This document shows positions 14,843 through 39,039 of a DNA stretch of 64,000 nt, one piece after another. A model generated the notes under the pieces. That model was not told the DNA's origin. It made no database searches and saw nothing but the letters and a program-made list of their open reading frames with translations. Each line of letters opens with the position of its first letter. Within the stretch, counting starts at the first letter, position 1. Origin of the DNA: Methanocaldococcus sp. 28A (GTDB lineage: Archaea > AGJL01 > Methanococci > Methanococcales > Methanocaldococcaceae); the NCBI GenBank assembly GCA_049852185.1, contig CP187540.1, one strand, 5' to 3'. A program made the translations under genes and the position numbers.

Positions 14843-14956
14843 TATAGTTGTGTGCAAAAGTTTTTTAATTAAAATAAGGAATTAGTGAATGCCTTCCTTA
14901 AAGAAGGCATTCAAATTGTCCTTATAAAAGTTTATTTTATTTTGCACACAACTATA
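14843..14956. mobile_element. Family-1 MITE (long form with internal hairpin)
   Basis: 17-bp TIR TATAGTTGTGTGCAAAA; internal GAATGCCTTC-CTTAAA-GAAGGCATTC. Confidence 0.9.
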
Positions 14957-32699: not shown

Positions 32700-32755
32700 G
32701 GCTCAGTTCGGGTAAGTATCATCACAGTTCAGCTAACCCTCTTTTCATCATTGCC
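32700..32755 (-). ncRNA. C/D-box 2'-O-methylation guide sRNA
   Basis: GGC-A-AUGAUGA-(12 nt)-CUGA-ACU-GUGAUGA-(12 nt)-CUGA-GCC; guides complementary to conserved 23S rRNA sequences UAACCCUCUU and UCGGGUAAGU. Confidence 0.92.
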
Positions 32756-34991: not shown

Positions 34992-36017
34992 TTAGATTAG
35001 ATACTCTTTAATAATATTTTTAACATTTTCGACCATTGATTTGATTTTATTATTATAAATATCTACGCCATCTCCTACACTATCTAACACATTTTCAGCA
35101 TTAACATAACCTTCAAAAAATGCTGGTGGAGCATACTTTAAACCTATTCCATAACCTCCTTCCAAAACTGATACAACACCATATCTGCTTAGCTTAGCCC
35201 CTACAAACCTATAAAAAGTTTCAGTTAAGCCCATGCTTGCTAAACCATCATTCATAAAAGCATCAAAACCAGCTGAAACTAAAACAATACTTGGCTTAAA
35301 ATAATCCAATATTGGTTCAACAATTTCATTCCATGCAAATATATAATCAAAATCTGTTGAATGTGCTGAGAAAGGAAGATTTATTTTAGTTCCCTCTGCT
35401 TCTTTGCCACCAATATCAAACACATCTCCTGTTCCAGGATAGATACCATTTTGATGAAAGTCGATATGTATAACATTCTTATCATTCCAAAAAATTTCTT
35501 GAGTTCCATTTCCATGATGTACATCAAAATCAATTATTATAACTTTTTTCATATACTTTTTAGCCAATTCTGCTGCTCCTGCTATATTATTAAAGATGCA
35601 AAAACCATTTGACATTGCTCCTAAAGCCTTACCAGAGATACCTGCATGATGTCCAGGAGGCCTTGTTAGAGCAAAGTATAAATCTTTATATTCTATAGCT
35701 AATTTTATAGCTTCTTTTGCTAACTTAAAGGCAGATAATGAAGCGTATAAAGTTCCTTTAGAGATGTAAGTATCAGAGTCATAATAGTTAAATAAATCGT
35801 TACAAAGCTTTACTATTGAATCCACATACTCTTTACTATGAATTTCTAAAATTTCATCAATAGAAGATTTTCCTTCAATTAAAATGATATCTTCAAATCC
35901 TTTTAATTTTAAACTATTTAAAATAATCTCAACTCTCTTTGGATTTTCAACATGGTAAAATTTTGGTTTGTGGTTTAAAACCTCTGGATTGTATAAAATT
36001 TTTGGCATTATAGACAC
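34992..36017 (-). CDS. Histone deacetylase family protein
   Basis: RPPGHHA, GFCIFNN, DFDVHHGNGT, LEGGY motifs. Confidence 0.93.
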   Translation of the reverse strand: MSIMPKILYNPEVLNHKPKFYHVENPKRVEIILNSLKLKGFEDIILIEGKSSIDEILEIHSKEYVDSIVKLCNDLFNYYDSDTYISKGTLYASLSAFKLAKEAIKLAIEYKDLYFALTRPPGHHAGISGKALGAMSNGFCIFNNIAGAAELAKKYMKKVIIIDFDVHHGNGTQEIFWNDKNVIHIDFHQNGIYPGTGDVFDIGGKEAEGTKINLPFSAHSTDFDYIFAWNEIVEPILDYFKPSIVLVSAGFDAFMNDGLASMGLTETFYRFVGAKLSRYGVVSVLEGGYGIGLKYAPPAFFEGYVNAENVLDSVGDGVDIYNNKIKSMVENVKNIIKEYLI

Positions 36018-36056
36018 CTAAAATAGCTGATTTAATATATTTTACAAAAAAAGAAT

Positions 36057-36110
36057 TTATAATTTTCCAGCAAATTCATAACCTTTATTAAATGCTAATA
36101 AATTTTTCTC
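36057..36110 (-). repeat. Displaced, synonymously diverged copy of the korC 3' end
   Basis: 46/54 identical to 36445-36498; encodes EKNLLAFNKGYEFAGKL*. Confidence 0.9.
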
Positions 36111-36113
36111 CAT

Positions 36114-36440
36114 CCATAGGGCAGTTTCCTTAAATAGAACATACAAATCTATACTTTACACCATCCAAAAATTTTAAATAATACTTTTAACAATACTTTT
36201 AACGATATATTATAGCGTGGCAGTCCCGATATGTGGGGGAAACTAAGCCCGAATGGGACTGCTATTAAGATGAAGATGTGGGGAGTTTCCGTTCCCCCCG
36301 ATTGCCAGCCGATGAAGTTGGGAGGCTGGAAGGTTATCCGCTACGATTCGTTCGATATGTTCCATTTGTAGCGGAGAACCAGAACGGAAACCCTATTGGG
36401 ATACCCCGATGCATTGCCTCGCTTCGCTCGGCAATGCCTC
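36114..36440 (+). mobile_element. Family-3 element with about 270 bp cargo inside its terminal hairpin
   Basis: CCATAGGG(36114)...CCCTATTGGGATACCCCGATGCATTGCCTCGCTTCGCTCGGCAATGCCTC; same frame as the cargo-free copy at 38972. Confidence 0.75.
36219..36393 (+). ncRNA. HgcC-like structured RNA (candidate TnpB omegaRNA scaffold)
   Basis: GC-rich island; stems GGCAGTCCC/GGGACTGCT, GTTTCCGTTC/GAACGGAAAC, CCAGCC/GGCTGG, TCCGCTAC/GTAGCGGA; frame 36270-36371 reads KMWGVSVPPDCQPMKLGG, resembling archaeal TnpB C-termini as recalled. Confidence 0.65.
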
Positions 36441-36444
36441 TTTT

Positions 36445-36987
36445 TTATAATTTCTCTGCGAATTCGTAGCCTTTATTAAATGCTAATAAATTCTTTTCTT
36501 CAGTTCCCTTTGGAACGCTATCTAAAATTGCTTTTTCCATACTCTCTTTTGAGACAATATTTGTTAATTTAGTTAAAGCTCCTAACATAACTATATTTGC
36601 AACAATAGGCAATTTTATTTCTTCTGATGCAATTCTTGTAAATGGAATTTTATACATTGTTATATTAACATTAGGCATTTCTTCTGTAGAAACTAAATCC
36701 TCATCAACTAATATAATTCCTCCCTCTTTAATATCATCCTTATATTTATCATAAGCCTGCTGTGATAAACAAACCAAGATATCTGGCTTTATGACTTTTG
36801 GGAAATCTATTGGCTCATCACTAATAACAACCTCTGATTTACTTGCTCCTCCTCTTGCCTCAGGTCCATAAGATTGTGTTTGAACAGCCTCTTTTTTGTC
36901 ATATAAAGCTGCTGCTCTTCCCAAGATAACCCCAGCTAAAATAATCCCTTGCCCACCAAAACCAGATAATCTTATTTCTTTTCTCAT
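36445..36987 (-). CDS. korC: 2-oxoglutarate:ferredoxin oxidoreductase gamma subunit
   Basis: SGFGGQG, SYGPEARGG, NIVMLG motifs. Confidence 0.92.
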   Translation of the reverse strand: MRKEIRLSGFGGQGIILAGVILGRAAALYDKKEAVQTQSYGPEARGGASKSEVVISDEPIDFPKVIKPDILVCLSQQAYDKYKDDIKEGGIILVDEDLVSTEEMPNVNITMYKIPFTRIASEEIKLPIVANIVMLGALTKLTNIVSKESMEKAILDSVPKGTEEKNLLAFNKGYEFAEKL

Positions 36988-38971: not shown

Positions 38972-39034
38972 CCATAGGGCTCCGCTCTATTGGATACTCG
39001 GAGATGCACTACCTCGCTTCGCTCGGTAGTGCCT
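38972..39034 (+). mobile_element. Family-3 element (cargo-free)
   Basis: CCATAGGGCTCCGCTCTATTGGATACTCGGAGATGCACTACCTCGCTTCGCTCGGTAGTGCC. Confidence 0.8.
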
Positions 39035-39039
39035 TTTAA

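Follow-up and report, generated by a model that had tools for sequence, protein, structure and literature searches.

IS607-family insertion sequences carry a GG core dinucleotide at their ends and in their target (PMC6188088; Zedaveinyte et al., 2023, bioRxiv 10.1101/2023.11.20.567912), and in one system tested, (T)GGG is the preferred target and also the transposon-adjacent motif (TAM) of TnpB (bioRxiv 10.1101/2023.11.20.567912). Elements resembling palindrome-associated transposable elements (PATE-like elements) with omegaRNAs were described for the IS200/IS605 family by Meers et al. (2023, PMC10055086). For Staphylothermus marinus, repeats were reported that resemble the region upstream of IS607-family transposase open reading frames (ORFs), some of them truncated and some located inside other features (Anderson et al., 2009, PMC2678158). 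Here, a cassette of 266 bp (36122-36387) is described, which is located in a 64,000-nt stretch of the Methanocaldococcus sp. 28A genome (contig CP187540.1), referred to as the window. The genome (G000; 1.56 Mb, 30% GC) belongs to the order Methanococcales. The cassette originates from an IS607-type tnpB element and is very probably a miniature, non-autonomous form of an insertion sequence of the IS607 family with a serine-recombinase tnpA (tnpA_S) and a tnpB.

Origin of the Cassette

The insertion site of the cassette is the hairpin 1 loop of a repeat with two hairpins (family 3), and 269 bp separate the left arm CCATAGGG (36114-36121) from the right arm CCCTATTGG (36391-36399) as read directly from the sequence. 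The GC content is 0.49-0.53 across 36200-36400 compared to about 0.25 in the flanks. The initial annotation had reported a cassette in the hairpin loop with its flanking motifs, a promoter-like stretch with a tandem repeat and a GC-rich RNA of four stems, all of which were found in place. The features are:

36114..36121, plus strand: left arm of hairpin 1 of the host repeat (CCATAGGG), from direct reading, the repeat consensus CCATAGGG-loop-CCCTATTGG and the orthologue in genome G013
36122..36171, plus strand: left end (LE) of the mini IS607-type element (CAGTTTCCTTAAATAGAACATAC...), by homology to the LEs of full-length relatives
36172..36180, plus strand: archaeal TATA-like box TTTTAAATA, full elements having the same box ahead of tnpA_S in their LE
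36180..36203, plus strand: 12-bp tandem duplication, two units of AATACTTTTAAC (36180-36191 and 36192-36203), from direct reading and comparison of copies
36214..36387, plus strand: omegaRNA scaffold of 174 nt with four stems, from covariance model R1, RNAalifold and single-sequence folding
36217-36228/36254-36265, 36280-36285/36294-36299, 36305-36310/36324-36329 and 36332-36344/36368-36380, plus strand: the four omegaRNA stems
36380..36387, plus strand: terminus of the right end (RE), CAGAACGG, conserved across loci, its terminal GG being the second core dinucleotide
36388..36407, plus strand: predicted guide segment AAACCCTATTGGGATACCCC, host DNA that comprises the loop and right arm of hairpin 1, from the divergence of copies after CGG

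The cassette has kept the LE with the former transposase promoter, the omegaRNA scaffold (about 170 nt) and the RE ending in ...AACGG. Internal deletions would have removed tnpA and nearly all of tnpB, and as only the tail of tnpB was left, the omegaRNA came to lie directly behind the old transposase promoter.

This origin is traced by relatives in which tnpB is still present. In G038, the same LE (L030:312-360), RNA and RE frame an ORF for a TnpB of 404 aa, the RNA and RE being 80-88% identical. The protein matches PF07282 (E 1.2e-21), and its best solved relatives are Cas12f/TnpB structures (E 1e-14). G007, which belongs to the genus of the window, encodes a TnpB of 85% identity and has the same LE and RE. 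In both genomes the scaffold overlaps the 3′ end of tnpB, so that the assignment of the tnpB-less cassette, with its own promoter-like TATA box, as a TnpB omegaRNA scaffold is borne out by the same RNA at tnpB 3′ ends of relatives. Stem 1 of the window matches the codons of the zinc ribbon of the G038 TnpB (CPICGG...SPNG), and stems 3 and 4 of G007 differ from those of the window by compensatory changes. The frame reading ...KMWGVSVPPDCQPMKLGG... in the window is the ORF 36231..36371, a relic of the TnpB C-terminus that aligns with residues 366-402 of the G038 protein at 62% identity (E 5.9e-8).

The organization of the parent family was derived from 25 loci with TnpBs of 57-64% identity, which were collected in a scan of species-representative genomes and span Thermococcus, Archaeoglobales, Desulfurococcaceae, Bathyarchaeia and others. 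A serine-recombinase tnpA is located directly upstream and ends at the tnpB start in 21 of the 25 loci (18 near full length, two in pieces, one remnant), and a Y1 transposase was found in none of them. Model R1 matches the tnpB 3′ end over its full length in 19 of the 25 loci (E 1e-30 to 6e-13). The LEs of the full relatives start with GGG|C(T/A)G... and contain a TTTAAATA box ahead of tnpA, and 17 of 19 REs finish with ...GAACGG. The Methanococcales copies share the LE GG|C[ACT]GTTTCCTTAAATAGAAC....

A classification as a miniature inverted-repeat transposable element (MITE) in the strict sense, with terminal inverted repeats and a target-site duplication of fixed length, was rejected, as the ends show only a weak complementarity (GTTTCC / GGAAAC) that is partly host sequence, and no target-site duplication is present here.

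Several points weigh against this assignment or against parts of it. Within the Methanococcales, no full element with tnpA_S and exactly this RNA was found, the G038 and G007 elements being tnpB-only, and the IS607 elements of G039 carry a different TnpB and different ends. A TnpA_S-like remnant fused to the G024 mini copy L051 is weakly similar (tblastn E 3-7) and was not used as evidence. At E<=1e-40, no cognate TnpB was detected in 11 of the 13 genomes with the RNA, several of these being fragmented assemblies, and this does not fit easily with a role that depends on TnpB alone. The promoter, the transcript ends and even expression itself are predicted from sequence, and with the TATA-like box 36 nt from stem 1, the 5′ end of the window RNA may differ from that of other copies.

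Junctions, Right End and Predicted TAM

Of 15 Methanococcales junctions, 14 have GG immediately in front of the LE, and in 11 it is GGG; in the full IS607 relatives, GGG occupies this position in all 19, as read by eye. At the opposite end, the RE terminus CAGAACGG is exact in 23 of 30 loci and the final GG is present in 28. In the window, (A)GGG at the 3′ end of the left arm provides the target/TAM-like motif and the GG crossover dinucleotide of the left junction. In sequence, the junctions of the cassette match the published IS607 signature, the GG core dinucleotide and the TGGG target/TAM, and the predicted TAM is (N)GGG. GGG is concentrated in the GC-rich hairpin repeats of this 30%-GC genome, which explains the nesting of the cassette in a hairpin repeat. 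As the RE reads ACGG, the occupied site would differ from an NGGG TAM by one base.

Structure of the omegaRNA and Predicted Promoter

RNAalifold, applied to an independent MAFFT alignment of 14 tnpB-less copies, recovered the four stems with compensatory changes in 7 of 31 pairs. The single-sequence fold of the window RNA has a z-score of -4.1, and none of 200 shuffles was equally stable. For the 31 matches from tnpB-attached relatives, 95.3% of the cells are paired in R1 and 21 of 31 pairs show compensatory changes, although this alignment was fitted to the R1 model, which inflates pairing somewhat. These pairing values were reached by none of 500 shuffles, and slid controls gave 35-53% pairing. 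The window copy is the top-scoring member of the family (209.9 bits with R1). A pseudoknot of CCGTT (36289-36293) with AACGG (36383-36387) is possible, for which the invariant right end gives no covariation.

The RNA is predicted to be driven by the TATA-like box TTTTAAATA, probably inherited from the parent transposase promoter. The distance from this box to stem 1 is 24-27 nt in the other mini copies and 36 nt in the window copy, in which the 12-bp duplication has moved it 12 nt further away. The duplication of AATACTTTTAAC is private to the window copy, the other copies having a single unit.

Guide and Predicted Targets

All copies diverge right after ...CAGAACGG at 36387, and from the first base beyond CGG onwards each copy has a flank of its own. 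This places the boundary between scaffold and guide at 36387/36388, where it had been proposed initially, and gives AAACCCTATTGGGATACCCC as the predicted guide. The further proposal that this guide would direct a TnpB to the dispersed repeats found no support, as the only perfect match of the 20-nt guide in the genome is its own site. The nearest other sites have three mismatches; two of them are family-3 copies and the third is a chance site. In the two closest family-3 copies, two or all three mismatches fall on guide positions 1-3 next to the would-be TAM, and GG is found in front of none of the nearest guide-like repeat copies. Under the TnpB homing model, the RNA would recognize only the vacated allele of its own locus, not the dispersed repeats.

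The Host Repeat and Its Empty Sites

The family-3 repeat is a two-hairpin unit of about 65 nt (CCATAGGG-loop-CCCTATTGG..GCATTGCC-TCGCTTCGCTC-GGCAATGC). Hairpin 2 is present in about 11 family-3 copies, and its stem has compensated changes between copies. To the right of the cassette, and at a second site, the window contains:

36391..36446, plus strand: remainder of the host family-3 repeat, with the right arm CCCTATTGG at 36391-36399, then hairpin 2 and then a T6 run
36411-36418, 36419-36429 and 36430-36437, plus strand: hairpin 2 of the repeat, with the arm GCATTGCC, the loop TCGCTTCGCTC and the arm GGCAATGC
36441-36446, plus strand: T6 run, candidate terminator of a plus-strand transcript
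38972..39035, plus strand: paralogous family-3 repeat without insertion

The copy at 38972 had been taken as the empty copy. It is indeed a repeat without the insertion, but as a diverged paralogue (79% identity over the 3′ half) it is not the allelic empty site. The true unfilled orthologue is found in G013, where the repeat is present in the same position, the cassette is missing and hairpin 1 reads CCCATAGGAGG-AAA-CCTCCTATTGGG. Its AAA loop corresponds to the AAA after the window cassette, and the insertion point is therefore located between ...GGG and AAACCC. The orthologous locus of G005 likewise contains an unfilled repeat; G014 (with a flanking gene of 96% identity), G001 and G007 have neither repeat nor cassette there. 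In total, a comparison of 13 genus genomes shows the cassette at the orthologous locus in one. IS607 elements are expected to have neither terminal inverted repeats nor a target-site duplication; at the window copy the flanking bases are not duplicated, and LE-bearing copies have no such duplication either. For a second copy, 9 of 12 genus genomes show the empty site.

The family-3 repeat and the cassette within it stand between two copies of a segment of about 55 bp from the 3′ end of the POR gamma-subunit gene, duplicated in direct orientation (36060-36113 and 36445-36500). The same arrangement is present in G013 and a shorter one in G005, and neither duplication nor repeat is found in G014, G001 and G007. 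Long target duplications may be generated by family-3 repeats or move along with them, or the repeats may be lost when such duplications recombine.

The loop of family-3 hairpin 2 reads GAGCGAAGCGA on the minus strand (window 36411-36437). A hairpin in the 3′ coding end/omegaRNA region of a second IS607-type TnpB family has the loop GAGCGAAGCGA in G039 (L078:3100-3140) and the near-identical loop GAACGAAGCGA in G000 (C1, about 632.4 kb). The host repeat may itself be a PATE-like relic of another TnpB element.

Copies of the Family and Partner Proteins

The cassette had been regarded as an orphan. As a single copy this does not apply, since it belongs to a multi-copy mobile-element family with six full-length copies in G000, which were identified by BLAST and the covariance model at 36214, 216176 (minus strand), 162236, 1425599, 1360603 and, decayed, 1036436 (minus strand). 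There are also three fragments, and two solo left ends were found at 1022.7 kb and 763.4 kb. For the copies at 1425.5 and 162 kb, the right flanks are other repeats, so that the insertion boundaries are unreadable from an empty-site reconstruction. The hairpin upstream of the 216-kb copy is unique in G000, and no paralogous empty site was found for it.

Across the order, R1 gave 53 matches in 13 of 40 Methanococcales genomes, covering three of five genera. A full tnpB is present at 2 of 30 inspected loci, the other 28 being without a full-length tnpB. At E<=1e-40, G038 and G007 were the only genomes with a cognate TnpB, and G005 has a pseudogene. The G024 mini copies retain an extra coding sequence (...VNPAHTSS...), their deletion junction being different. 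Since mini copies of different genera have different deletion junctions, the guide-only form arose more than once.

As had been noted, the window contains no tnpB: the eight PF07282 matches of G000 are all located beyond 350 kb. The idea of a TnpB encoded in trans finds no partner in this genome, which lacks a cognate TnpB, the best G000 protein being 36% identical to the cognate one. No related RNA was found at any of the eight tnpB loci of G000 (R1 with filters off; best 8.6 bits, E 0.35). A serine recombinase was not found in G000 either, as judged by the lack of a PF00239 match; a trace of the serine transposase is left as an N-terminal remnant of 24 aa at 1012424-1012495, which is 75% identical to that of G007. 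G000 has one Y1 tnpA, which is unrelated.

Further observations concern individual loci. In G039, five near-identical mini copies (L028, L041, L048 and two more) stand beside four IS607 elements of a different TnpB/omegaRNA type, and a cognate TnpB is absent. As parents or mobilizers of the five mini copies these elements are doubtful, since their ends and TnpB differ. At 1022.7 kb of G000 C1 (L023), the solo LE abuts the RE (..GGGAAACGG) of a tnpB remnant of the 448.9-kb type, with the serine transposase remnant 10 kb away. Downstream of the gene that is interrupted at 1425.5 kb in G000, relatives (L083-L089) hold a conserved, GC-rich, RNA-like element of about 150 nt that ends in a T-run. 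Its place in G000 is taken by the mini element together with a further, reversed TnpB-tail remnant.

Proposed Mechanism and Alternative Explanations

The arrival of the cassette would be explained by insertion at (G)GG through a serine transposase supplied in trans, with a GC-rich hairpin repeat supplying this motif at its top. Transcription from the TATA box would yield an RNA of about 230-240 nt, in which the scaffold would be followed by the 3′ flank AAACCCTATTGGG... up to the T-run at 36441-36446. By analogy to the family, a cognate TnpB loaded with this RNA would cut the vacated site only, (A)GGG followed by AAACCCTATTGGGATACCCC, and such cutting would promote copying of the element back into the site, in line with the homing model of TnpB. 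Because G000 has neither a cognate TnpB nor a serine recombinase, the window copy is most likely an idle, well-preserved relic, which could become active only upon entry of a matching element into the cell.

A different pattern is seen in two copies without an LE, in which the initial bases of their own target occur on both sides as a direct repeat, with 9 nt in G011 (L112) and 19 nt with one mismatch at 216 kb in G000. At L112, the empty site, as present in 9 of 12 genus genomes, reads TGGGGAATAAAAGTTTATG and the filled site TGGGG-AATAAAAGT-AAAA-[promoter..RNA..CAGAACGG]-AATAAAAGTTTATG. A 5′ fragment at 166 kb and a 3′ fragment at 463 kb of G000 resemble the halves of a likely third LE-less copy with a 16-nt repeat. 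The locus at 242.5 kb of G000 has retained both direct repeats but no element, as against the empty site with a single copy in the 9 genus genomes. Loci with LE-less copies or with such repeats include L112 (G011), L111 (G006) and the positions 242.5, 216.2-216.4, 166.2 and 463.9 kb of G000 C1.

These copies could be read as scars of TnpB cutting and interrupted gap repair, linked to a selection of the RNA itself, either as guide-only hyperparasites of TnpB or as co-opted small RNAs (sRNAs). Under this model, TnpB would cleave the vacated site, and copying from the element-bearing chromosome copy would then be interrupted. Selection for the RNA itself is suggested by guide-only mini elements that outnumber the nuclease and arose by different deletions in different genera. 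We regard this linked pair of proposals as tentative and on the whole unlikely; if true, the scars would be fossil evidence for an RNA-guided homing cycle in a hyperthermophilic archaeon.

It is improbable that a resident, non-cognate TnpB loads the RNA in trans and directs it to the vacant site or to related repeats. The candidate would be, e.g., the intact frame of 442 aa at about 448849-450177 of G000, which is open, whose right end also finishes with ...AAACGG and whose 3′ region has, as judged by eye, a CCGTTC loop and a GATGAA motif as seen in the window RNA. Trans-use is also in line with the window copy being the best-scoring and least decayed member of the family, and the omegaRNAs of PATEs must be used in trans according to Meers et al. 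(PMC10055086). However, this TnpB is only 36% identical to the cognate protein, and the R1 matches obtained with filters off are not significant, neither at the 3′ end of the 442-aa frame (3.0 bits, E 8.7) nor at the 3′ end of a broken paralogue near 737 kb (8.6 bits, E 0.35 in 19 kb). A second genomic target is also lacking, the fewest mismatches being three and none of these sites having GG in front.

Co-option of the scaffold as a TnpB-independent small RNA with a regulatory or structural role would explain its persistence without a nuclease, and would be consistent with the 11 of 13 RNA-bearing genomes without a cognate TnpB, with a full tnpB at only 2 of the 30 loci and with the same stems being kept in mini copies of different genera despite unlike deletion junctions. 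The compensatory changes seen among tnpB-less copies alone (7 of 31 pairs) point in this direction, too, and a PATE-derived RNA with growth effects was reported in Halobacterium (Gomes-Filho et al., PMC4615843). Nevertheless, the G000 copies are decaying (deletions of 7-10 nt, truncations and one copy of 91 bits), the closest relative G014 has no copy, and the 3′ "guide" is unlike at every locus, so that a common target does not exist. As persistence is also expected of neutral relics or of elements served by a transient, plasmid- or virus-borne TnpB, we consider such a role quite doubtful.

Membership in the HgcC RNA family, which had been suggested by the initial annotation, or in the IS200/IS605-family PATEs with a Y1 transposase is very improbable: although HgcC-type RNAs were linked to IS1341-type tnpB ends (PMC4615843), and G000 has one weak HgcC-like match just 3′ of an IS605-type tnpB at 829 kb and one Y1 tnpA, neither HgcC nor any other relevant Rfam family was matched at the locus, a Y1 transposase occurs in 0 of 25 related full elements as against a serine recombinase in 21 of 25, and the GG/GG junctions fit IS607. 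In numbers, the HgcC model gave no match in 35900-36700 at E<=10; its seven matches in G000 are weak, lie at none of the copies of the cassette family and remain below the gathering score of 50 bits, the best genome-wide match reaching 24.8 bits elsewhere. All Rfam matches at the locus at E<=10 were at chance level (U4atac, GA-cis, blv_FSE and TMV_UPD). A Y1/IS605 PATE parentage was rejected on the same count of related elements and on the GG/GGG junction motif; parents of that kind are mobilized by a Y1 HUH transposase and have a 4-5-nt TAM at the LE as well as subterminal hairpins.

Other Features of the Window

The cassette locus is located between two genes on the minus strand:

34992-36017, minus strand: gene for a histone-deacetylase-family protein (PF00850)
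36445-36987, minus strand: gene for a POR-family gamma subunit (PF01558, E 7e-41)

In the whole window, the only Rfam match at gathering score is the C/D-box sRNA sR3 at 32701-32755 on the minus strand (RF01133, 52.2 bits, E 3.9e-10). A very abundant short repeat (..AAGTTTATTTTATTTTGCACACAACTATAA) is present near 14928, 19615, 24075 and 62000 of the window, with about 100 sites genome-wide. It often adjoins a palindromic partner and forms a separate repeat family.

Comparison with Known Systems

The assignment gives a GC-rich "mystery RNA" family of the Methanococcales a defined origin as the omegaRNA that belongs to an IS607-type clade of TnpB with a wide distribution among vent archaea. The ends of the element are thereby defined, (N)GGG is predicted as the TAM, and a covariance model is available for use. 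The assignment further illustrates that guide-only derivatives can far outnumber the nuclease, and it is a warning for genome annotation that such GC-rich islands are transposon relics and not new RNA genes. The thermophilic TnpB and omegaRNA pairs of G007 and G038 could be of interest to tool builders, although similar systems are already described. No paper was found in the literature whose title or abstract deals with this Methanococcales family; older reviews may mention the Methanocaldococcus repeat.

HgcC RNAs and sense overlapping transcript RNAs (sotRNAs) at IS1341-type tnpB 3′ ends (RF00062; Gomes-Filho et al., 2015, PMC4615843) are, as reported there, likewise GC-rich structured RNAs from tnpB 3′ ends in AT-rich archaeal genomes. 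The cassette differs from them in that it has no covariance-model similarity to RF00062, and it represents a different omegaRNA family of a different TnpB clade.

With the IS607 IStron and its CboTnpB (Zedaveinyte et al., 2023, bioRxiv 10.1101/2023.11.20.567912), the family shares the GG core at both junctions, the (T)GGG target and TAM, and an omegaRNA that ends at the RE with the guide beyond, as far as these are described there. Those elements are bacterial, contain a group I intron and were tested as full elements, whereas the TAM and cleavage of the archaeal family are predicted.

The IS607-related MITEs of about 260 nt in S. marinus (Anderson et al., 2009, PMC2678158) are, by their description, multiple repeats of about 260 bp and likewise from an archaeal hyperthermophile. 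That report predates the omegaRNA and describes inverted repeats, and the likeness to the cassette is one of description.

The closest counterparts are the PATE-like IS200/IS605 elements (Meers et al., 2023, PMC10055086), which, like the cassette, are described as protein-less and composed of an LE, an omegaRNA scaffold and an RE, take as guide the DNA just beyond the RE and need TnpB and transposase in trans. Compared to the PATEs of that report, the cassette has an IS607-type parent (serine recombinase, GG junctions) and not a Y1/IS605 one, a hyperthermophilic methanogen as host, its RNA directly behind the former tnpA promoter and no cognate TnpB in the genome. Gene-less mini transposons with an omegaRNA are thus of a kind already described, and the IS607-derived family of the Methanococcales is a clear further example.

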